Source: a virus (Duplodnaviria > Heunggongvirae > Uroviricota > Caudoviricetes). From it: a stretch of DNA of 53,137 nucleotides. Where the stretch lies: the IMG/VR virus record IMGVR_UViG_2645727867_000003. The stretch is one strand, 5' to 3'. Made by a program: the position numbers and the translations under genes. Position 1 is the first letter of the stretch. Every line of letters starts with the position of its first letter. The notes under the pieces were generated by a model that was not told the origin of the DNA, ran no database searches, and was given only the letters and a program-made list of their open reading frames with translations. This document shows, piece by piece, positions 1 to 43,329 of the stretch.

Positions 1-524
1 ATGACAACTCAAATCTCTGTTGAAACCATCTCCCCGTTCACCCATAACCAGATTCCTGTTATTACCACCGAACTTTTGGCGCAGCTTTATGGCACCGAAA
101 TTCTGAATATCCAGGTTAACTTCACCAGAAACAAAGAGCGTTTTGTCGAAGGAAAGCACTTTTTTAAAGCATCGGGTGAAGAATTAAAAAATTTGCGACT
201 TACTTTAAGTAAGTCACAAAACCCCATATCTCCCAAAGCCCGCCCCTCACCCTATGGACAGAACGCGGAGCAGCACGCCACGCAAAAATGCTGGAAACCG
301 TTCAGGCGTGGGAAGTGTTCGAAAAACTCGAAGACTGTTATTTCAGCCAAAAACAGCCACCAGCAGCACAAAACCCCCCAACCCAAAATGATGGATACGC
401 ATTACTGATCCACCTCGATAAACACGGGCAGGTCGAATTCACGGAAAAAATCCCCGCCGATGCGATGGTATGCACTCTGGAACGGTTTTTATCTGGAGCA
501 ACACGACTGGATCGTTGCCCGTAA
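1..524 (+). pseudogene. ORF6N-domain antirepressor-like gene, disrupted by a frameshift near 230-245
   Basis: Frame 1 (1..408) matches the N-terminus of the intact paralog at 42437..42988 (ITTELLAxLYGTE...RFxEGKHFFKA). Homology then continues in frame 2 (288..524, ...AARHAKMLETVQAWEVFEKLED...). Confidence 0.5.
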
Positions 525-930
525 AGAACAACTGGTAGAACGGTTGATGCGGTTTTAATGATTGCAAAACCCCGGATGATCACTGGGGTTAATTTTATCA
601 AGCGTGATTGCCGCTAATCGCCCTCTCTCTGATTGAGCGTAAATCATCCAGGTTATGCAGTTCTTCCTGGACGTAATTGTCACAGGCTCCAGCAATGATA
701 GACTCTCAATTTTAAGAGCCGTAGATAAAGAGCCTGCACATACGTTCATTAAGCAAACGCTTCAAAATGTCTGGAAAAAAATACGGACTTCCGAAAATCT
801 GAAAAATCATCCATATCAACAGGATGCACGAAAAATGAGAGTTCCGTCACTTCCGGAATTAACTTTTCCGTGGCACTATTTACCCGGCATAGTGTATATC
901 TTCACAATAATGACATAATCAACGCAGTTC

Positions 931-962
931 ATGGGGGAGGTGATGGTCCCCCATCTTTTTGT
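931..962 (+). terminator. intrinsic terminator (8-bp stem ATGGGGGA/TCCCCCAT followed by T-run)
   Basis: Perfect inverted repeat with 8-nt loop followed by CTTTTTGT on the plus strand. Confidence 0.5.
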
Positions 963-965
963 CTG

Positions 966-1637
966 TTATTCCTGTGCCCAGCCAACCCTGTATACCAGGA
1001 TCTCATCCGCACTGCTCAGCGATTCCAGGTCCTTCTTCATGGTGCGCTGGCGAATGTGGATTTCCATCCCTTTGCTGAACATCGCCTGCTCTGCCGCTTC
1101 ACTCAGCGCAATAAGCTCTTCTGCTGTCACCTGTACATCATTGTTTTCCGCATCCGTCCAGAAAAACGCCTCCGGCAGTTTCCCCGCTTTCGCTGCCGCC
1201 ACCGATGGCTCAAGGCGCGTCTGCGTTGACTTTCCGTAGTCCCATTTCCGGCCATTGTGCTCAAACGTGTAGTTCGCCGCCTCCATCGCATTACGCCACG
1301 CGTTTATTTCATCGCCCTTCATCCCGCGCGCTTTCTCCGCGGTCAGAGTATCAACGACGTTTTCCCCGTCAAACTTCCACCGCCCGGAGATATCAGCTTT
1401 GCGGTTTTCTGCTGTATCCTCAACCTCCACCACACTCTGCCCCACTGGCCACAGCATCGACACATCCTTACTGATACTCGTGATTATGCCTTCGCTGTCA
1501 TAAACCAGCTTCAGCGTATCCGCCTTAAATGACGACTGGCTTTCATACCAGTCACGGCCATCCTCTGCCTTCAGGTACATTGACCCCGGAACATCCGACT
1601 TCTCAGGAGTATAACGTTGCAGATTTTTAAGATTCAT
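966..1637 (-). CDS. putative tail fiber assembly/chaperone protein (called mainly from position downstream of stf)
   Basis: 223-aa ORF immediately downstream of the side tail fiber gene. No clear match to the lambda Tfa C-terminal motif. Confidence 0.45.
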   Translation of the reverse strand: MNLKNLQRYTPEKSDVPGSMYLKAEDGRDWYESQSSFKADTLKLVYDSEGIITSISKDVSMLWPVGQSVVEVEDTAENRKADISGRWKFDGENVVDTLTAEKARGMKGDEINAWRNAMEAANYTFEHNGRKWDYGKSTQTRLEPSVAAAKAGKLPEAFFWTDAENNDVQVTAEELIALSEAAEQAMFSKGMEIHIRQRTMKKDLESLSSADEILVYRVGWAQE

Positions 1638-1705
1638 TTCTTCTCCTCATACGAATATTCAGGACAGGGTACCCGTTTAAGCTTTCCGCGCCCGGAAAAA
1701 TCATG

Positions 1706-2974
1706 TTATTCATGTTCCACCGTAACCCACTGGCTGCCATCATGAACCTGAAGGAAGCCGTAAGTGACAGCGGTGACACAGGCTGCCCCTAAATTGCCGT
1801 TCGTCAGTGATACCGGAGCCGTCCTGATATTCAGAATCACAGCGCCATCAGGGGCTGCATTTTCCCCCTGCGCACCGCCATAAAAAGAGGGGAAAACGAC
1901 TGTGCTGGAGGTGACTTCTGTTTTCTCGCTGATACGCACTCTGTTCGCCTGTGAATCTGCGCCATCCTTCCCTGCGGGGCCCGTCGGCCCGGTATCACCT
2001 TTCGGCCCCCGCTCACCGGCAGGGCCTGCCGGGCCGGGGTCACCTTTATCCCCTTTTTCCCCTTGTGGTCCTCTGGGGCCGGTAGCACCCTGTGGACCTC
2101 GATCACCAGGCTCGCCTTTTTCCCCCTTAGGACCGACGCTACCTGTTGGCCCCGGAGGTCCAGGTATACCCTGTGGACCAGCCGGACCTGTATCGCCTCT
2201 CTCCCCTGCCACACCCTGCAATCCTTGCGGCCCTCTCTCTCCGGCGGGTCCCCTCGGACCTGCCGGGCCCTGAGGCCCCGGCTCCCCTCTGGGGCCAGTG
2301 TCACCTTTTGGTCCCGGAGGTCCTCCGGGATCTCCCGGCTCTCCTTTTTCGCCTCTGGCTCCGGTTTCACCTCGCGGGCCCGCAGGACCAGCAGGCCCCT
2401 GAATACCCGCCTCTCCTTGCGGTCCCACGGGTCCGGTTTCACCCCGTGGCCCCTGTACCCCCTGTGGGCCTGCCTCACCACGCTCACCCTTTGGCCCACG
2501 CTCGCCGGTATCGCCTTTTGGCCCGGGAATACCCTGTGGCCCGGTGTCTCCCTTATCCCCCTTCGGTCCCCGCGCATTCTCTGCCCGTTTCTTCGCTTCC
2601 TCTGCACTCGCCGCTGACGCTTCCGCACGTTTCAGGATTTCCGCGGCCACCGCTTCCAGCTCTGCAAGGGCTTTCGGGTAATACTGTGCGTCCTCCAGGT
2701 CCATCAGAAATTTATTCAGCGTTCCCGGTGCAGAGTCCGCCTTCACCAGAATGTCACCCACATATGACGGCGCGTACCCTTCCGTGTTCAGCGTCACCCG
2801 GTACAACCCCGGCTCAACATCCATACTGTAACTGCCGGTTTCCCCCGGCTGACCATACGCCACCGTGGTGACAATCACCGTCTCCGTTGTGCGTCGCGCT
2901 TTCAGCTCTATCGTGCATCCCGGTACCGGCTTACCGGCCCCGTCCTTCAGCACACCAGAAATTTTAACCGTCAT
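1706..2974 (-). CDS. stf: side tail fiber protein with long collagen-like Gly-X-Y repeat region
   Basis: N-terminus [17 protein letters not shown]...CTIELKARR resembles lambda Stf. The central ~270 aa are Gly-X-Y triplets ([20 protein letters not shown]...). SD GGAAAGG precedes the ATG at 2974. Confidence 0.85.
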
Positions 2975-2986
2975 ACCTTTCCACCA

Positions 2987-3018
2987 ATAAAAAAGCCCGC
3001 AGCAGTAATGCCACGGGC
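2987..3018 (-). terminator. intrinsic terminator between lom and stf
   Basis: Minus-strand hairpin GCCCG...CGGGC followed by T6, about 14 nt upstream of the stf RBS. Confidence 0.5.
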
Positions 3019-3123
3019 TTCAGGACAGTGTAACTTTACGTTTCCTCAGACGCAGCTCACCCATAAGGTGGATGAACATGCTCATTATACCAATATTTAC
3101 AGAAGATAAAGCTGTATCTGCCG

Positions 3124-31853: not shown

Positions 31854-31859
31854 ACATGT

Positions 31860-31885
31860 AAAAAGGCTCCTGCGATGAGGAGCCT
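31860..31885 (-). terminator. minus-strand intrinsic terminator convergent with the sRNA-A terminator
   Basis: Hairpin GGCTCCT-N6-AGGAGCC followed by T5 on the minus strand. Confidence 0.5.
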
Positions 31886-31899
31886 GGATGTATGCCTAA

Positions 31900-32900
31900 T
31901 CTCTGTATACTGCATGGTGCCGGGTGCCTCCCGGTGAACAAATGTCCGTGATATCAGTCGGCCACACAGGAAATGATACGATATCACCCCTCCGCACAGG
32001 GGGATTCACCATGCCCGTTTTTTTTAACAAACTCCTCATCAATCAGACAATCATCAACCTCATGAATTGTGAGGAATTTAACATTTCACAACACAGCCTT
32101 TTCCCTGCATAAAAAAGCCCCTCCGGAGAGGGGCTTCGCTACGTGTCTGTTAACCATATGCATGATGCCGGGTGCCTCCCGGTGAGTTCAGTATCAGCAC
32201 CTGAACCCGCACAGAAAGGATAGAGTAGAAACACCTGCGCTGATATGCCCCTCCGCTCAGGGGGATTCACCATGCAGAACTTTTTTAACAACTCCCCGTA
32301 AGACAGGCAAGCATCAACCATCTGAACTGTGAGGAATTTAACATTTCACAACACAGCGTTTTTCCTGCATAAAAAAGCCCCTCAGGAGAGGGGCTGACAC
32401 TGCGTATCTGTATCATCATGAACATGGTGCCGGGTGCCTCCCGGTGAGTCCAGTCTGGTGTCCCTGAACCCGCGTTTGCATTGCCTACAACAGAAAAGAT
32501 GCAAATCACACCAGTCGCCCCTCCGCACAGGGGGATTCACCATGCAGAACTTTTTTAACAACTCCCCCTCAGACAGGCAAGCATCAACCACCTGAACTGT
32601 GAGGAATTTAACACTTAACAACACAGCCTTTTCCCGCACAAAAAAAGCCCCTCCGGAGAGGGGCCGATCGCTATGTATACACCATAAGCAGCATAGTGCC
32701 GGGTGCCTCCCGGTAGATTCAGCCTGACTACTGAATCTGCGTATTGTGACCATCGCTATGGAGACCATGTCAGACGCCCCTCCGCACAGGGGGATTCACT
32801 ATGCTGGCTCGTTTTTACAAGACTTCCATCGATCAGACAATAGCCCATCAACCGAATTGTGAGTCATTTAACATTTCCATGAGGTAACTGATATCCAGCT
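31900..32900 (-). repeat. tandem array of four ~260-bp structured repeat units (candidate minus-strand sRNA genes), each with a hypervariable internal hairpin
   Basis: Each unit has conserved blocks GTGCCGGGTGCCTCCCGGTGA, CCCCTCCGCACAGGGGGATTCACCATGC, GAATTGTGAGGAATTTAACATTTCACAACACAG and a minus-strand terminator GCCCCTC-CGGA-GAGGGGC plus T6 (32111-32134, 32371-32394, 32641-32664). A 50-70-nt unit-specific segment lies between the first two blocks. Confidence 0.6.
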
Positions 32901-33122
32901 AACAATCATCTACAATGGACGAAGCCAGTTCCAGAACTTGCCCACGGTACAGCAACAACCACTGCATACACATAATTACCACCGGACTCTCTGAACCTGC
33001 CTCCTGGCTAACCCCAGATACAACACCACCAGTCACAAAAGCATCTTATTCTGAAGTACAACTGCCGTGCGGCAGATACTAAAAGCGCCTGTATGTAACA
33101 ACATAAATATACAGGATATGTT

Positions 33123-33401
33123 TTATCCACGGGATATAATTTTGATTTCATCAAAACCGTTACTACCTGCAATTCTGTTGTACTCCTGAACAAGACTCAG
33201 TAACTCCGAATTAGCCGCGGTGAACTCCTCACAGACGTTCCGAAGTGCATCTACATCCAGAAGAACCATCTCCTGACCTGAACGTCGATCAGGGGTACAA
33301 AATAAAACTGTCAGACGACTGAAGACCTTTGTTCGTTCCACATTGACGGCTTCAATACGCTGTAACAGTTGGCTACATCTGATTTTCTCATCAATATTCA
33401 C
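33123..33401 (-). CDS. hypothetical protein (92 aa) downstream of the AraC-family regulator
   Basis: GTG-start ORF in an AT-rich segment. Weak SD. Confidence 0.3.
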   Translation of the reverse strand: MNIDEKIRCSQLLQRIEAVNVERTKVFSRLTVLFCTPDRRSGQEMVLLDVDALRNVCEEFTAANSELLSLVQEYNRIAGSNGFDEIKIISRG

Positions 33402-33489
33402 GCAAACACCAAATGATTATAACTTTTTATGCTGAACACATTCAGACTATATCTAATACAGTCAATCAATATATGCCTGATGAAAAACA

Positions 33490-34215
33490 TCAGATAACGT
33501 CTGCTTTCTGCAAATATGCATAGCTCTCAGGTGGTGCACCATAATACTGGTGAAATACAGAAATGAAGTAGGACTTACTTGAGTAACCACATTTTTCCGC
33601 TATCGCTTGTCCACACTCTCGCTGGAAACATACAAGATTAACAGCAACACGCATTCGCTCCTCCAGCAACAACCGACTAAAGCTATAACCTTCATCCTTA
33701 AGTTTTCGCTTCAACAAGCTTTCGCTCATATGCAATTGTAATGCAATCACACCAAGCATCCAGCCTGCCGATATGTCGGTCTGAATTATAGCCCTTACTT
33801 TACAGCTGATATTATTTACAGCACCGGACAAAAATAATGGCAGACGTCTGTCTGTTGCAAATAAGGAGATACATGAAAATGCGGTTATAACAGAGAAATC
33901 CTTCAAAGTATCACTGGATTCACTATGCTGGGTTATTAAAGCCTCCGCCAGTTCCGTATTGTAAATATCAGACATCAAATAAAGAGGAATTTTTGTCGGT
34001 GTATACTCCGTCAGTTCACACTCCCTTTCCAGATACTGATTGACGACGCTGTTACTTATATCTGCCATTTTCACTCTGTCGGCATAAGCACAGAAAAGCC
34101 CTCTTATATTTCTGGCAACAAGCATAACACTTCCGGCATCGAGTGAAACTTTTTCTTTTTCAAGAAAAATATCTATCGGATAGCGAATCAGGACCACAGA
34201 GCAGGCAACATCCAT
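33490..34215 (-). CDS. AraC/XylS-family transcriptional regulator (GadX-like C-terminal HTH)
   Basis: C-terminal …LLKRKLKDEGYSFSRLLLEERMRVAVNL…CGYSSKSYFISVFHQYYGAPP… is an AraC-type double HTH. AT-rich codon usage. Confidence 0.8.
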   Translation of the reverse strand: MDVACSVVLIRYPIDIFLEKEKVSLDAGSVMLVARNIRGLFCAYADRVKMADISNSVVNQYLERECELTEYTPTKIPLYLMSDIYNTELAEALITQHSESSDTLKDFSVITAFSCISLFATDRRLPLFLSGAVNNISCKVRAIIQTDISAGWMLGVIALQLHMSESLLKRKLKDEGYSFSRLLLEERMRVAVNLVCFQRECGQAIAEKCGYSSKSYFISVFHQYYGAPPESYAYLQKADVI

Positions 34216-34282
34216 TTTGAATTAACCTTAGCAAAAAGACTTAATACCAGTATATTCCAAAAATGGCATTTTGGGAGATTAC

Positions 34283-34455
34283 TTCTGCAAACCGCTCCCG
34301 CTAAATACATCCCTGATTTCCTGCGCAGTCTGTTCAAAACGCCCGGTATCCAGCTCAACGCCAGTTGCACGACGCCCCAGCGCCATCGCTGCTTTAACTG
34401 CCGAACCCTACCCCATGAAGAAATCTGCAACCAGGACACCCAGCAGAAGGGAGAC
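34283..34455 (-). pseudogene. remnant 3' fragment of a DNA methyltransferase gene (paralogous to 35819-35990)
   Basis: Nucleotide alignment to the 3' end of the intact methylase gene. Translation …ADFFMG*GSAVKAAMALGRRATGVELDTGRFEQ… carries an in-frame TAG. Confidence 0.55.
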
Positions 34456-34486
34456 TACAGCCCGCAATTCGAAAAAGGCCACGCTA

Positions 34487-34516
34487 TTGCGCAGAGTGAT
34501 TACTGTCGGGTATTAT
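34487..34516 (+). promoter_or_regulatory. sigma70-like promoter (TTGCGC-18 nt-TATTAT), paralog of 31740-31769
   Basis: Identical hexamers and spacing. Confidence 0.45.
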
Positions 34517-34523
34517 TCGCCAG

Positions 34524-34591
34524 TTGAAGTATTACTTCACGTTTTATTGTTTATTCCTTGCCGCCCGCGTCTCCCAGCGCGGGCTTTTTTT
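34524..34591 (+). ncRNA. candidate ~70-nt sRNA, paralog B
   Basis: Same conserved core as paralog A. The terminator stem is changed in a compensatory way (GCCCGCG-N8-CGCGGGC plus T7). Confidence 0.4.
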
Positions 34592-34599
34592 GTCCATAA

Positions 34600-34860
34600 G
34601 AAAGCCCCTCCGGAGAGGGGCTGAAGCCGCATTTCTGTATCACCATGAGCATGGTGCCGGGTGCCTCCCGGTGAGTTCAGCCCGGTGACACCAAACCCGC
34701 GTATTCTCGCTTACGATCATCAAAGAGATCATACCGTTCACCAGTCGCCCCTCCGCACAGGGGGATTCACCATGCGAAATTTTTTTAACAAATGCTCAGT
34801 CTGACAGGCAACTGTCAACTTACTGAATTGTGAGGGATTTAACACTTCACAGCACAATAT
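34600..34860 (-). repeat. solitary fifth copy of the ~260-bp structured repeat unit
   Basis: Contains all four conserved blocks plus its own variable segment. Minus-strand terminator at 34605-34628. Confidence 0.55.
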
Positions 34861-34910: not shown

Positions 34911-35339
34911 TCAGAGTTTAAAATCCAGCACGCCATTTCTAAATGCTTTATATACTCCTGAAGACGGTGGTGATGGTATATCAGCATTCTTTACTGCATT
35001 CATCGCTTCACGACATAAATCGGGATCACCGCTTTCTCTTTTAACCTGTAGCAGAAGACCATTCGGGGCCATATACATTCTCAGTGAACACTCTTTTCCT
35101 GAATACTTACTCGCATCCTTTAACTGTTCTTCTATGGCTTTCCTGACCTGAATGGCATACTGCCGGATTTCTTCACTGGCATCAGGGGTACGTTCCGATG
35201 AGCTCAAATTTTGTGACTTTATTAATTTATCTGAGTGATACAGAGAAGCATCATAATTATTTGTCGATACATCTTTTGTGCAGCCAGTTGTCAGACTGGC
35301 TAATATCAAAACAAGAACCGGTACAGCACGGCAATACAT
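34911..35339 (-). CDS. lipoprotein with TolA C-terminal (domain III)-like region
   Basis: Signal peptide/lipobox-like LTTGC. C-terminal …YSGKECSLRMYMAPNGLLLQVKRESGDPDLCREAMNAVKNADIPSPPSSGVYKAFRNGVLDFKL is collinear with TolA domain III as recalled from memory (…YAGKTCTLRIKLAPDGMLLDIKPEGGDPALCQAAL…FKNAPLDFKP). SD GGAG. Confidence 0.7.
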   Translation of the reverse strand: MYCRAVPVLVLILASLTTGCTKDVSTNNYDASLYHSDKLIKSQNLSSSERTPDASEEIRQYAIQVRKAIEEQLKDASKYSGKECSLRMYMAPNGLLLQVKRESGDPDLCREAMNAVKNADIPSPPSSGVYKAFRNGVLDFKL

Positions 35340-35617: not shown

Positions 35618-35694
35618 TGGACCGCCATCGAGGACTCGAACCCCGCGCAGCCAGCTTCGAAGGCTGGCGCTCTATCCCGATGAGCTAATGGCGG
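35618..35694 (-). tRNA. tRNA-Arg (anticodon UCG)
   Basis: Hand-folded cloverleaf: acceptor CCGCCAT/ATGGCGG, D-stem GCTC/GAGC, anticodon loop CUUCGAA, T-loop TTCGAGT, 3' CCA encoded. Confidence 0.7.
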
Positions 35695-35702
35695 TATGGA
35701 TA

Positions 35703-35778
35703 TGGTGGCCCTTGCTGGATTTGAACCAGCGACCTGGCGATTATGAGTCGCTCGCTCTCACCACTGAGCTAAAGGGCC
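35703..35778 (-). tRNA. tRNA with CAU anticodon, ileX-like (tRNA-Ile2 read via lysidine, or Met)
   Basis: GGCCCTTTAGCTCAGTGGTGAGAGCGAGCGACTCATAATCGCCAGGTCGCTGGTTCAAATCCAGCAAGGGCCACCA closely resembles E. coli ileX as recalled from memory. Confidence 0.8.
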
Positions 35779-35818: not shown

Positions 35819-36880
35819 TCATCCATTCTGACTGACTAAATCCTGTACTTCCCTGACCGTCTGCTCAAAACGTTCAGTCTCCAGCTCAACGCCAGTTGCA
35901 CGACGCCCCAGCGCCATCGCGGCTTTGACTGTCGAACCCGACCCCATGAAGAAATCTGCAACCAGGTCACCCGGACGACTGCTCGCACTGATTATCTGCT
36001 GCAGCATTTCTGCCGGTTTTTCGCACGGATGTTTCCCGGGATAGTACTGCACCGGTTTATGCGTCCACACATCCGTGTACGGCACCTGCGCCGTCACGCC
36101 AAAATACCGCCGCAGATGCTTATATTCACTCTGCAGTTCCGCATACTGCCGGTTCAGTGAAGTATACGTCTCCAGCAGCTGGTGGTGGGGCTTTTCCAGT
36201 TCACCCCGCTGATGCTTCTCTTCTGCCACCCGGGCAAACAGCGCCTGTAATTTCAGATAATCGCTTTCGTTCGGTAGCTGCCACTGACTGGCACTGAACC
36301 AGTGCGACACCATGTTTTTCTTTCCTGTGGCATCCACTATCTGTTTTGCCGTTATCCCCAGGGCAGCACGCGCATCACGAAAGTAAGCAATCAGCGGAGC
36401 CATCACATGCTGTTTCAGTGCCCTGCCCTTCGCCTCATAGCCATCATCTTTCGAGCGATACGGCCCCTGATAGTGTTCCGCGAACAGAATGCGCTCTGTG
36501 GCGGGGAAATACGCCCTCAGGCTTTCCTTGTTGCACCCGTTCCAGCGTCCGGACGGCTTCGCCCAGATAATATGGTTCAGCACACTGAAGCGTTCACGCA
36601 TCATGATTTCAATGTCAGACGCCAGGCGATGGCCACAGAACAGGTAAAGACTTCCGGCAGGTTTCAGCACCCGCCAGAACTGCGCCAGACACTGGTCCAG
36701 CCACTTCAGGTAATCATCGTCGCCCTTCCACTGGTTATCCCAGCCCTCAGGCTTCACTTTAAAGTACGGCGGGTCCGTGACTATCAGGTCAACAGAATTT
36801 TCGGGTAACGACCGGATAAATTCCAGGCAGTCGGCGTTGATTAACTCACAACTGGATATTTTTACAGTATTAAACTTGGA
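35819..36880 (-). CDS. DNA N6-adenine/N4-cytosine methyltransferase; the conserved N-terminus lies upstream of the first canonical start codon
   Basis: In-frame translation upstream of the called GTG start reads …ELINADCLEFIRSLPENSVDLIVTDPPYFKVKPEGW…, including the DPPY motif. No ATG/GTG/TTG between the upstream stop (36881-36883) and 36757. Confidence 0.7.
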   Translation of the reverse strand, partial: SKFNTVKISSCELINADCLEFIRSLPENSVDLIVTDPPYFKVKPEGWDNQWKGDDDYLKWLDQCLAQFWRVLKPAGSLYLFCGHRLASDIEIMMRERFSVLNHIIWAKPSGRWNGCNKESLRAYFPATERILFAEHYQGPYRSKDDGYEAKGRALKQHVMAPLIAYFRDARAALGITAKQIVDATGKKNMVSHWFSASQWQLPNESDYLKLQALFARVAEEKHQRGELEKPHHQLLETYTSLNRQYAELQSEYKHLRRYFGVTAQVPYTDVWTHKPVQYYPGKHPCEKPAEMLQQIISASSRPGDLVADFFMGSGSTVKAAMALGRRATGVELETERFEQTVREVQDLVSQNG

Positions 36881-37028
36881 TCATTAAGCCTGTCTCTGAT
36901 AGGCTCATACCGCTTTTGCGCAAAGCAGATGGGCCTGAGGTTTGCTTGTGACCCCAACGCATGAGCAGATGGCTGGTGAGTGCCCCTAACACCCACCAGC
37001 CGCCCATTTACCACAAATAAAAAAGCCT

Positions 37029-37226
37029 TCAGGACTGAAGGCGTCTGTAACAACCAAACTGATAGTCTGCCAGACCCGCCATAACAAGCTGGGTCAGTAT
37101 TAGCTGGCAGCGTTCGCGTGAAAGGTACGTATTCTGTGCAATCTCCCCGACTGTCGCCGGTTCGGTGGCACTTAATTCATTAAAAACTGCTCTGGCGGTT
37201 TCTGTCATATCCTGCTGTTTCAGCAT
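37029..37226 (-). CDS. small putative winged-helix protein
   Basis: MLKQQDMTETARAVFNELSATEPATVGEIAQNTYLSRERCQLIL… with SD AAGGGA. Confidence 0.45.
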   Translation of the reverse strand: MLKQQDMTETARAVFNELSATEPATVGEIAQNTYLSRERCQLILTQLVMAGLADYQFGCYRRLQS

Positions 37227-37399
37227 GTCTTTTTCCCTTTTCCGGTTAACGTGACACACCAATAACTCTTGTCAAAAAAGCCAGCAAGCTGAAAGACCGG
37301 TATTAATAACCACCTGCACATTTTATGTACTGCACCATTTTTCTGGCATAAAAAAGCCGCTCAATGCCGGGCAGTAAAATCTTTATTACTCAGGAAATT

Positions 37400-38113
37400 T
37401 TAACGTACTCTGACAGTATTAATTTCAAAATCATTAATATTTCCGCTATTAAATATAACGAATTTCTTACCCCCACTCCTGTATGATTTCGATAACACCA
37501 GACGATCATCATAGCGCGCAATAATGTAATACCATACATTCTCATAGTGGACCGCCTGATATTCCCTCTTAAACTGTGGTTTGTACCAACCGGCAATAAG
37601 AGAGAATGCCCAGAAATAAATCATAAACCCAGCCATCATGAACTCAATTCGGTGATGGCGAATAACAGACATTTCCGAAAAACATTTGACTGAAACAAGT
37701 CTTCTTCCAGACCTGACAAAAAGCGTGATTGCAAAGGCAGCAAGAACGCAGAAAATCAGTACATCTGGCTCAACATGCTGATGAATTACAGAAAACTCCA
37801 GAACAGGTGGAATAAAAAGCAGCAATATCGCGAGAAAAAGCCGGATAAAACTCAAATTTTGTATATTGCGCTTTTGTTTTATGCCCAAAAAGAAAACAAT
37901 ACCAACTCCCCATCCAATAAGGAATATAACAATAACTGTCACAGCATAAAACAAACTTCGTGCTACATCATCGACACCAGCCCCGACAACCCACCATGGA
38001 AAGCCATAGTAAAATGAAGTACCCCATCCATAGAAATAAGCGCTCCCCCATCCGAGACAGCCCATATAAGCAACAAAAAGTGAAGAGTTTCTGAGCAGAG
38101 CACTGTCATCCAT
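37400..38113 (-). CDS. polytopic inner-membrane protein of unknown function (AT-rich accessory gene)
   Basis: 237 aa with several Trp/Gly/Phe-rich hydrophobic segments. First gene downstream of the late promoter. Confidence 0.55.
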   Translation of the reverse strand: MDDSALLRNSSLFVAYMGCLGWGSAYFYGWGTSFYYGFPWWVVGAGVDDVARSLFYAVTVIVIFLIGWGVGIVFFLGIKQKRNIQNLSFIRLFLAILLLFIPPVLEFSVIHQHVEPDVLIFCVLAAFAITLFVRSGRRLVSVKCFSEMSVIRHHRIEFMMAGFMIYFWAFSLIAGWYKPQFKREYQAVHYENVWYYIIARYDDRLVLSKSYRSGGKKFVIFNSGNINDFEINTVRVR

Positions 38114-38330: not shown

Positions 38331-38359
38331 AATATATGCCTTTTTATCTACTTTTGCAA
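38331..38359 (-). promoter_or_regulatory. candidate late promoter pR' (TTGCAA-17 nt-TATATT) immediately downstream of Q
   Basis: Near-consensus hexamers with 17-nt spacer, 8 nt after the Q-like stop codon. Confidence 0.5.
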
Positions 38360-38366
38360 TACTTTG

Positions 38367-39032
38367 CTATGAAAATGCCGCCTTTTGTTTTGAACGTGTT
38401 CCCTCCACCAACAATAAAGCTTCACTATCCAGCCGATGAAAAATGTGTTTCATTGCAACCCAGTGACCAGTAAATGTCTTGGACCAGTTTTTGGTTGTTA
38501 CTCCCACCAGTAACGCCAGTTCCTGGTATTCGTAACCTTCCCCACCAAAAAACTCAGCTTTTACCGCCTGCGCCGCCAACCAGATCAACGTCTTCAGGCG
38601 CACCAGAGTTTTTCCTGCAATTTTTCTGGTACCGGATTGAGCATTAAATTCAGTCCACGCCCACTGCGTTATCGCGATCTGATGCTCCCAGCAAATGCTA
38701 CCGCTGTAACACCACAGCAGCCAGGCTTTATGATGTTCTTCAAGAGACAGAACGGCGCGTCGCCATGATGATGTCGAAAACTCAACCGGACTGACCAGGG
38801 CAATTGATGAGCCTTTCGCCAGTGATTGTTTGCCCGGGATCGGGGGATTATCCCGCGTGATCATTTTTCCGGTTACCTCATCGCGGTAACGAATTTTTTT
38901 GCGTCTGTAACGCCCTGTATCGAACAGGGCATTTTCCTGCCAGACTTCCAGCTGGCCTTTTGTCGACCCACTAAGATCCGCAGTGGCAATCATGAGTTGC
39001 TCACGAACAAACTGTAAATACTGGTTATTCAT
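38367..39032 (-). CDS. late-gene antiterminator Q-like protein
   Basis: ~220-aa protein directly upstream of the pR'/tR'-like module and downstream of rusA. Family assignment is from position and size. Confidence 0.55.
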   Translation of the reverse strand: MNNQYLQFVREQLMIATADLSGSTKGQLEVWQENALFDTGRYRRKKIRYRDEVTGKMITRDNPPIPGKQSLAKGSSIALVSPVEFSTSSWRRAVLSLEEHHKAWLLWCYSGSICWEHQIAITQWAWTEFNAQSGTRKIAGKTLVRLKTLIWLAAQAVKAEFFGGEGYEYQELALLVGVTTKNWSKTFTGHWVAMKHIFHRLDSEALLLVEGTRSKQKAAFS

Positions 39033-39387
39033 GCACACCCACCTCTGTAATTCTTATCTCCAGCCGTCCACCAGATACTGGCTTGCCACGTACAATATTG
39101 ATTTCATCAAACTGCTCATCGTCCATTAACAACCCCGCGTGCGTCAGCGCATCCAGCGGTGCTTTCAGAATATTGTCCAGGTCACGGCGGCGCTTATCCG
39201 GTGGCTCTGCAATAATTTTTATTGCCAGCCGTCCGGACAGGCTTAATTTCAGTCGCTGCTGGCGAACAATAAGCGCCACTGCCCGGCGATAACGCTCCCC
39301 GGCTTTTGATACAAAATATGTGCTGCCACGGCGTCGCCAGTAAGTGTTCACCGTCGGCGGGTAAGGTAAAACCAAATCTATGAGCAT
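39025..39387 (-). CDS. rusA: Holliday junction resolvase RusA
   Basis: MLIDLVLPYPPTVNTYWRRRG… with the characteristic RusA N-terminus and acidic catalytic residues. Confidence 0.9.
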   Translation of the reverse strand: MLIDLVLPYPPTVNTYWRRRGSTYFVSKAGERYRRAVALIVRQQRLKLSLSGRLAIKIIAEPPDKRRRDLDNILKAPLDALTHAGLLMDDEQFDEINIVRGKPVSGGRLEIRITEVGVHE

Positions 39388-42009: not shown

Positions 42010-42165
42010 TTACTCCTCAGGTTCGTAAGCTGTGAAGACAGCGACCTCCGTCTGGCCGGTTCGGATTCGTACCTCGCAGAGGTCTTTCCTCGTTACCAGT
42101 GCCGTCATTATGACGGTTAAACAGATGACAATCAGGGCGATTAACATCGCCTTTTGCTGCTTCAT
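42010..42165 (-). CDS. hokD: Hok/Gef-family type I toxin (HokD/RelF-like)
   Basis: MKQQKAMLIALIVICLTVIMTALVTRKDLCEVRIRTGQTEVAVFTAYEPEE. SD AGGAG upstream. Confidence 0.8.
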   Translation of the reverse strand: MKQQKAMLIALIVICLTVIMTALVTRKDLCEVRIRTGQTEVAVFTAYEPEE

Positions 42166-42436
42166 AGCCTGCTTCTCCTTGCCTTTCGGCACGTAAGAGG
42201 CTAACCTACATGTGCAAAGCATGAAATTGGCCTCAGATTAATGTTAAGCGTCCTGCAAGACGCGTAATGTTAACTGGGGCTTTTCTCTGTCTGCCTTACG
42301 GCGGCATGCCCGAGGCAGACAGCCTCAAGCACCCGCAGCAATTCTACTTAACTCTTCTTTCCCCGCAAATCATTTTATCCCCGATGGTAATGTTCTCCCG
42401 ATATGGGAATTCCCATATCAAGGTTAACTCAATCGG

Positions 42437-42988: not shown

Positions 42989-43329
42989 GATAACGCCCTC
43001 TGGTTGATGAATTTAACTATCACCACCTTCAGGTCTCAATCATCAGGTGGCGAGACGTACAGGGTTGAGACTACCGGATCAACCAACCGGCCAGCCTTTC
43101 GGCTGCCCCATACGCCTCACCATAATTCAGATGTGCGTGCGCATACGACAATAAAAAACACGCTCGCGGCGTGTGTCTGTCGCGGTTGAATATCCGGGGT
43201 CTCAATCCCGACGGTCAACTCGACCGTGCGGTGAATATAGCCCCGGATTAGTAATTACGTCAACCCCAGCGGCAAATCGAATAAACCACCAGCGCTACCG
43301 CCATTGCAACTCCTGCCGTTACGAATGCC

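Follow-up and report, generated by a model that had tools for sequence, protein, structure and literature searches.

The closest described relatives of the gene considered here are M.EcoGI and M.EcoGII of Escherichia coli O104:H4 (C227-11), the second of which is a non-specific N6-adenine methyltransferase that acts on DNA and RNA in any context (Murray et al. 2018, PMC5778455). M.EcoGII is silent in the lysogen and harmful when constitutively expressed (PMC5778455). The usual role of such an enzyme would be blanket methylation of phage DNA late in lytic growth, by which restriction in the next host could be evaded. The same gene, behind the same leader and in the same position between the antiterminator gene Q and the lysis or stx/tRNA module, is present in phages phiP27 (L24), SfV (orf48), mEp460 (gp53), cdtI and 1720a-02 and in Stx2a, Stx2c and Stx2d (Shiga toxin) phages. 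Here we describe an orthologue in a 53,137-nucleotide stretch of DNA from a virus of the Caudoviricetes (IMG/VR record IMGVR_UViG_2645727867_000003), which we call the window and to which all positions refer. All the phages named above have ATG where the window has AAG, and we suggest, with a probability of about 0.8, that this allele is null or near-null, which would make it a young pseudogene; other parts of the prophage are decaying as well. The features of the gene that bear on this suggestion are:

35819..36877, minus strand: ancestral extent of the methyltransferase reading frame, 352 codons plus stop, encoding a beta-class N6-adenine methyltransferase of the M.EcoGI/M.EcoGII type
36881..36883, minus strand: in-frame TGA, one codon 5′ of the ancestral start, closing the frame
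36875..36877, minus strand: mutated start codon AAG, which is ATG in every relative (T>A at window position 36876, from alignments)
36857..36859, minus strand: ATA codon used as the start by RefSeq/PGAP (WP_039259629.1, 346 amino acids, intact coding sequence), an ordinary Ile7 codon in the orthologues
36764..36775, minus strand: catalytic motif IV, DPPY, residues 35-38 of the ancestral protein by translation, upstream of GTG 36757
36755..36757, minus strand: first canonical in-frame start, a GTG that is Val41 of the ancestral protein (the Val after DPPYFK); its product has 312 amino acids and lacks motif IV
35936..35950, minus strand: S-adenosylmethionine-binding motif I, FMGSG (FxGxG), residues 310-314 of the ancestral frame by translation, aligned to motif I of solved beta-class methyltransferases

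A first-pass annotation of the sequence had reported a frame that is open from the stop at 36881-36883 and has its DPPY motif upstream of the first usable start, and direct reading of positions 36000-37400 together with translation bears this out. On the minus strand the frame is open from the TGA at 36883-36881 to the stop at 35821-35819, with no in-frame ATG, GTG or TTG from that TGA until the GTG at 36757-36755. It translates after the TGA as SKFNTVKISSCELINADCLEFIRSLPENSVDLIVTDPPYFKV..., with the N-terminal stretch CELINADCLEFIRSLPENSVDLIVTDPPYFK, and begins with the residues S K F N T V K I S S C E L I N A D C L E F I R S L P E N S V D L I V T D P P Y F K V. The open reading frame (ORF) lister gives only a 312-amino-acid ORF (35819..36757) for the methyltransferase, and a longer one upstream is impossible, as the TGA stands one codon 5′ of the ancestral start; the CTGATCY-ATG arrangement around this TGA is likewise present in E. 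coli relatives. A chance open frame is ruled out, since the 41 codons 5′ of the GTG are 100% identical to the N-terminus of the intact orthologues except for codon 1.

The identity of the protein is supported at several levels. The Pfam profile N6_N4_Mtase (PF01555) matches with E=5.4e-44 and 151 bits (cutoff 26.7) over profile positions 1-219 of 221, in a match that begins at residue 30 of the open frame and thus 5′ of GTG 36757. Solved beta-class enzymes (RsrI, CcrM, MboIIA and others) match at 1e-25 to 1e-15 and align from residue 9, and the motifs stand in the order of the beta class, with DPPY N-terminal, the target-recognition domain central and FMGSG C-terminal. The protein shares 330 of 347 residues (95%) with the 349-amino-acid protein of O104:H4, a strain in which the start region is present twice, in line with its having both M.EcoGI and M.EcoGII. 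Published M.EcoGII, compared as machine-read text, has an identical N-terminus from residue 3 onward. M.EcoGII and M.EcoGI also share the order DPPY, target-recognition domain, FxGxG, the conserved leader, and the prophage context, with Q upstream and the ileZ/arg tRNAs downstream. Judged by profile match, motif order, identity and synteny, the gene is an M.EcoGI/M.EcoGII orthologue by descent. It differs from these genes in its AAG start, in its 352 rather than 349 codons (a variant of the C-terminal tail) and in its residence in a partly degraded lambdoid prophage without Shiga toxin genes. A canonical start upstream of motif IV, which members of this group have, is missing here: AAG replaces ATG, and the first ATG, GTG or TTG comes after DPPY.

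The nature of the lesion is clear from comparison with a sibling prophage in E. coli strain 4, which has an ATG start and matches the window at 99.9% identity over 1601 nt. Strain 4 reads GATCC ATG TTT AAT ACT GTA AAA ATA, whereas the window and strain FORC_041 read GATCC AAG TTT AAT ACT GTA AAA ATA. Just two differences separate the window from strain 4 over the 1059-nt gene, one at nt 2 (M1K) and the other at nt 424 (P142S); the latter is a C>T change at 36454 (minus strand) in codon 142, within the linker that follows the catalytic domain, and the residue is Pro in Sakai Sp9 and O104:H4. All 305 relatives checked retain ATG at the aligned position, namely 79/79 close IMG/VR relatives, 39/39 species-representative genomes from about 20 other enterobacterial genera, 112/112 loci retrieved via the leader sequence and 75/75 Morganellaceae-type phages. 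The annotated starts in mEp460, SfV, phiP27, Sakai Sp9 and O104:H4 are likewise the ATG aligned with the AAG at 36877-36875, and the purified M.EcoGII protein is published as starting MLNTVKISSCELINADCLEF / MLNTVKISSCEL... / MLNTVKISSCELINADCLEFIRSLPENSVDLIVTDPPYF (PMC11551740, Supplementary Table S1). Alignment with orthologous methylases, the check that the first-pass annotation had proposed, has in this way located the ancestral start: the orthologues begin at the upstream ATG and carry the N-terminal residues, and do not begin at the internal GTG. By these alignments the ancestral start is unambiguous and the lesion is a single T>A transversion, ATG to AAG, which lends support to the earlier suggestion that the gene had been inactivated by loss of its start. 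The start has been lost relative to close orthologues, and no canonical alternative preserves the essential domain, as in other start-loss pseudogenes.

A single T>A substitution in this lineage turned the ATG start of the methyltransferase into AAG. With no canonical start 5′ of DPPY and no Shine-Dalgarno sequence at the candidate starts, full-length enzyme would be made at about 1% of the normal level or less, and the product from GTG 36757, which lacks motif IV, would be unable to methylate. Duplexes with the anti-Shine-Dalgarno sequence were calculated at -3.3 kcal/mol for AAG 36877, -3.2 kcal/mol for GTG 36757 and -0.2 kcal/mol for ATA 36859 (essentially no Shine-Dalgarno), against a median of -6.8 kcal/mol for 40 annotated genes of the same prophage. 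In E. coli, behind an engineered ribosome-binding site, AUA, AUC, AUU and CUG initiate at 0.02-3% of AUG and the remaining non-canonical codons at about 0.01-1%, so that all codons other than AUG, GUG and UUG fall within 0.01-3% (bioRxiv 10.1101/063800). A null or near-null allele is further supported by the decay of the host prophage and by the second difference from the sibling (P142S), which is also non-synonymous. The loss of expression is what we infer, unlike the mutation, its rarity, the independent assemblies, the family membership and the intactness of the frame.

The first-pass annotation had also offered a sequence error as an explanation, and the AAG does differ by a single base from a near-identical sibling. 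However, when the 61-mer centred on the AAG was searched in 5426 complete E. coli genomes, it was matched in 1070 of them, and four of these carried the exact AAG version: 94-3024 and CFSAN002236, both of the O104:H21 lineage, FORC_041 and JNE082640. These four finished assemblies represent three strain lineages from unrelated sources, human stool from the USA in 1994, a Korean food isolate (FORC_041) and a Japanese patient (JNE082640). The change is moreover a substitution and not a homopolymer indel, and the 312-amino-acid product from the GTG start (e.g., APE92412.1), the form chosen by other gene callers, has been deposited from 8 public contigs; the intact sibling protein is found on at least 1000. 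As the same base was obtained in three independent lineages and laboratories, a true ATG hidden by a sequencing or assembly error is in practice excluded, and AAG is a rare, derived, inherited allele. The 94-3024 genome (NZ_CP009106.2) has a second place for the 61-mer around the start, where another prophage probably carries a paralogous methyltransferase. The spread of the allele is also one of the points that weigh against its being silent, for it has persisted long enough to reach three strain lineages on three continents. Furthermore, the remaining frame is wholly intact (352 codons, all motifs), reflecting either a very recent mutation or some remaining constraint. The native ATG also lacks a Shine-Dalgarno sequence; the leader may set unusual initiation rules, and the published percentages for non-canonical codons may not transfer. 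Alternatively, then, the allele could be attenuated but not dead, with a weak start at ATA 36859 or AAG 36877 giving a little active enzyme, and could be favoured because leaky non-specific methylation is harmful. Constitutive expression of M.EcoGII is indeed deleterious (PMC5778455). PGAP annotates an intact 346-amino-acid coding sequence from the ATA, AUA belongs to the codons that initiate at 0.02-3% of AUG, initiation at Ile7 would leave intact all the residues that align with solved methyltransferases, and the allele, which has no other lesion in its frame, is common to the three lineages. On the other hand, the ATA at 36859 is the conserved Ile7 of all orthologues (V5-K6-I7, GTA AAA ATA) and did not arise with the mutation, it has essentially no Shine-Dalgarno sequence, the retention of ATG in 305/305 relatives implies that selection normally maintains a strong start, and toxicity is already controlled by the late-operon placement, the upstream terminator and the leader. 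The idea of a rare initiator, which had likewise been put forward, corresponds to the RefSeq annotation from the ATA, but such a start is unlikely to exceed a percent or so of normal expression, and we consider attenuation unlikely. The AUU start of E. coli infC is an example of a weak start that is a regulatory device, conserved across species and coupled to autoregulation by IF3. The window gene is like infC in that a near-cognate codon heads an otherwise intact conserved frame, which is how the RefSeq ATA call treats it; it differs in that its codon is a rare derived state (4/1070 genomes) while its relatives uniformly have ATG.

Two further possibilities would give the gene a product by other means. 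Recoding could restore the N-terminus through a frameshift on the A5 run near the start, or through coupling to a 45-codon upstream ORF (37007-36870) that is initiated by ATG, spans the leader in the window and overlaps the start region with its TAA at 36872-36870. The A5 run (GTAAAAATA), which had been pointed out as a possible slippage site, lies in frame (V5-K6-I7) and is conserved in orthologues with a normal ATG, so that a frame change is neither required nor implied; no shift site is conserved among the orthologues, and we discard the run as such a site. The upstream ORF is not conserved and has no Pfam match, compensatory changes in the P1 hairpin of the leader (described below) alter its peptide, and reinitiation would still require a usable start codon; we find recoding extremely unlikely. 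It could also be imagined that the 312-amino-acid product from the GTG has acquired a new function, either binding nucleic acids or pairing in a dominant-negative manner with intact paralogues that other prophages encode in the same cell. Both the target-recognition domain and the surface for dimerization would be retained in this product, dimeric behaviour is known for beta-class enzymes, M.EcoGII among them (PMC7544214; PMC11551740), and the second place of the 61-mer in the 94-3024 genome could supply a partner. Still, GTG 36757 is without a Shine-Dalgarno sequence (see above) and is the ordinary Val41 codon in all orthologues, and nothing suggests selection for truncation, so a new function seems very unlikely. 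We favor the silenced allele: the loss of the start codon in a known prophage methyltransferase is the ordinary explanation, and it is masked here by the automatic ATA start call.

The start codon is preceded by a conserved sequence, for which two features are needed:

36878..37009, minus strand: leader of about 132 nt that separates the terminator from the start codon and may be a structured cis-regulatory RNA
37015..37042, minus strand: intrinsic-terminator-like hairpin GCCTTCAGTCCTGAAGGC (37042-37025) plus T run, immediately 5′ of the leader

DNA similarity to distant phages starts about 132 nt 5′ of the start codon, at AATGGGCGGCTGG (window 37009). In 37 loci of other genera the identity to the window is 82% in the leader, 73% in the coding sequence and 65% in the DNA further upstream, and in 37/37 the leader is more conserved than the coding sequence. 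The sequence of the terminator hairpin differs between genera and its structure is kept. Phages with the leader come from Escherichia, Salmonella, Klebsiella, Citrobacter, Hafnia, Morganella, Providencia and other genera. Within the window the leader is present a single time, and in IMG/VR it is followed by the methyltransferase in 112 of the 117 assessable cases. In four exceptions (L158, L199, L225 and L245) only the first ~45 nt of the leader, through P1, are present and unrelated AT-rich sequence follows; these look like recombination junctions inside the leader.

The minimum free energy of the window leader has a z-score of -3.8, and we examined covariation in an alignment of 59 sequences from Enterobacteriaceae-, Hafnia- and Morganellaceae-type phages, bearing in mind that the structures were partly derived from the very sequences used to assess them. 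The P1 hairpin (36971-37001) covaries strongly, with changes on both sides in 6 of its 9 pairs; for example, GGCUGGUGGGUG/CACCC.GCCAGCC becomes GACUGUAAAAGUG/CACUCUUACAGUC, and one sequence has GACAGUGAGGAUG/CAUCCCCACUGUC. Outside P1, covariation is limited by the very high sequence conservation. Two further helices are mutually exclusive, as they compete for the same bases. The first of these, AUGGGC/GCUCAU, is 97.5% paired, with mainly shifts among G-C, G-U and A-U and two compensatory singletons. In the second, UUCGCU(CAUG)/(CACA)AGCGAA, one pair occurs as CG in 17 sequences, UA in 15, AU in 7 and UG in 4, and the inner pairs of UUCGCU/AGCGAA change from U-A/G-C to G-C/U-A between clades. 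A possible pairing directly 5′ of the AUG, GGUCA/UGAUC, is 95% paired with one-sided changes only. For a hand-drawn closing helix P0 (UGGGC/GCCCA) one compensatory sequence speaks in favor (L098) and one against (L335, which fits AUGGGC/GCUCAU). Judging from its G-U pairs, the structure forms on the methyltransferase-sense strand. RNAalifold alone missed helix P2, although one of its positions shows three Watson-Crick pair types, and the consensus fold is provisional; a raw scan of column pairs over the 59 sequences mainly picked up differences between clades and was set aside as evidence.

Other readings of the leader were considered. Rfam gave no match to it on this strand at E<=1 with permissive filters, nor at gathering thresholds, and the prophage small RNAs (sRNAs) EcOnc, AgvB and AsxR were rejected as its identity, since they are located 3′ of moron genes. 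A scan for a sigma-70 promoter inside the leader found none, and a hand-read extended -10 element ('TGTGAAAAT') does not keep its register across sequences. The ATG-initiated 45-codon ORF (36870-37007, minus strand) spans the leader, and its TAA (36872-36870) ends 5 nt beyond the point where the methyltransferase would start. The AUG of this ORF (AAAUGGGCGG) does not vary in any of the relatives, and the ORF has 7 codons (MGGWWVL*, with two Trp codons) in most genera and other lengths elsewhere, without conservation of the peptide. We reject a protein-coding upstream ORF as the function of the leader, given the variable length, the compensatory changes in P1 that rewrite the peptide and the lack of a Pfam match, but a very short upstream ORF is conceivable, its AUG alone being invariant. 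Conservation and pairing together make a functional structured leader likely. It is possible, and we propose it tentatively, that it represents a cis-regulatory RNA not described before, through which translation of M.EcoGII-type methyltransferases is gated. A two-state regulatory switch is a plausible hypothesis; the features listed would be compatible with a switch that prevents synthesis of the toxic enzyme until a signal arrives late in infection.

The gene is surrounded by a lambdoid prophage that lacks stx. In reverse complement, the window corresponds to positions 2093002-2146138 of the chromosome of E. coli 94-3024 (O104:H21 lineage), with identity over the 50 kb checked. The neighbouring features are:

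38367..39038, minus strand: antiterminator Q (Pfam Phage_antiter_Q, 6e-90)
38331-38359, minus strand: PR′-like promoter, a promoter-like site just downstream of Q
37029..37226, minus strand: 65-amino-acid winged-helix ORF with sub-threshold TrmB/HTH_24/MarR_2 Pfam matches
35618..35778, minus strand: two phage tRNA genes directly 3′ of the methyltransferase, a CAU-anticodon tRNA (35703-35778) and tRNA-Arg(UCG) (35618-35694)
34279-34440, minus strand: remnant of a second methyltransferase copy, C-terminal part only (...LVADFFMG*GSAVKAAMALGRRATGVELDTGRFEQT...), interrupted by an internal stop; a RefSeq pseudogene

An integrase and DicA/DicB-type immunity genes lie at one end of the prophage, and next come O/P-like replication genes and RusA. 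In the late region after these, the order is Q, PR′-like promoter, a 237-amino-acid membrane ORF, the 65-amino-acid winged-helix ORF, terminator, methyltransferase, tRNA-Ile(CAU), tRNA-Arg, and the lysis, head and tail genes. As the PR′-like promoter lies just downstream of Q, the methyltransferase falls within the Q-dependent late transcript. Decay of the prophage is apparent from a frameshifted portal gene, several truncated genes and the methyltransferase fragment, and the fragment suggests that the methyltransferase-tRNA module was once duplicated or recombined. The winged-helix ORF usually stands 5′ of the terminator, leader and methyltransferase, as in SfV, phiP27 and mEp460 and in phages of E. 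coli, Shigella, Hafnia, Morganella and Providencia, and is missing or replaced in some loci. A prophage methyltransferase after a small winged-helix ORF is also known from Stx phages, M.EcoPA8orf6770P with PNB-2 (PMC10810198), and it is inactivated in some natural isolates, there by IS629. Identity with this rRNA methyltransferase (Gong et al., PMC10810198) was rejected, as it belongs to the MT-A70 family and not to N6_N4_Mtase and lies at another locus.

Several other elements of the prophage were observed. The tRNA at 35703-35778 (minus strand) is called 'Met' (anticodon CAT) by ARAGORN, whereas RefSeq and the phage literature have tRNA-Ile (ileZ type, presumably lysidine-modified). A lipoprotein-like ORF of 142 amino acids (34911-35339, minus strand) with a TolA C-terminal domain (Pfam 6e-23) is located at the stx position of Stx phages and may be a moron that interferes with Tol-dependent uptake. 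Five copies of the STnc100 sRNA (RF02076, 120-172 bits) are found 3′ of the tRNAs within 31854-34804 (minus strand), four of them in tandem (31854-32833) and one at 34592-34804. Matches at Rfam gathering level, all on the minus strand, were obtained for the sok antitoxin RNA by hokD (42160-42334), C4 antisense RNA (43043-43127) and isrK (43153-43227), which fall in the early, immunity-proximal region of the prophage.

The loss of the start codon explains the odd RefSeq annotation of a methyltransferase 'starting' at ATA, and little else is at stake in that finding. This copy is most likely silent, which matters for predictions of the methylome, or of the capacity to evade restriction, in O104:H21-type strains and their prophages, and the sibling pair, 94-3024 or FORC_041 with AAG and strain 4 with ATG, constitutes a natural isogenic control. 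The folded, conserved leader may be new and could be the more important result: M.EcoGII is in wide use as a tool enzyme, and a conserved leader before a start without a Shine-Dalgarno sequence is a candidate for its native regulation. If this reading of the leader is true, the AAG allele of the window would be a natural knockout downstream of an intact regulator.

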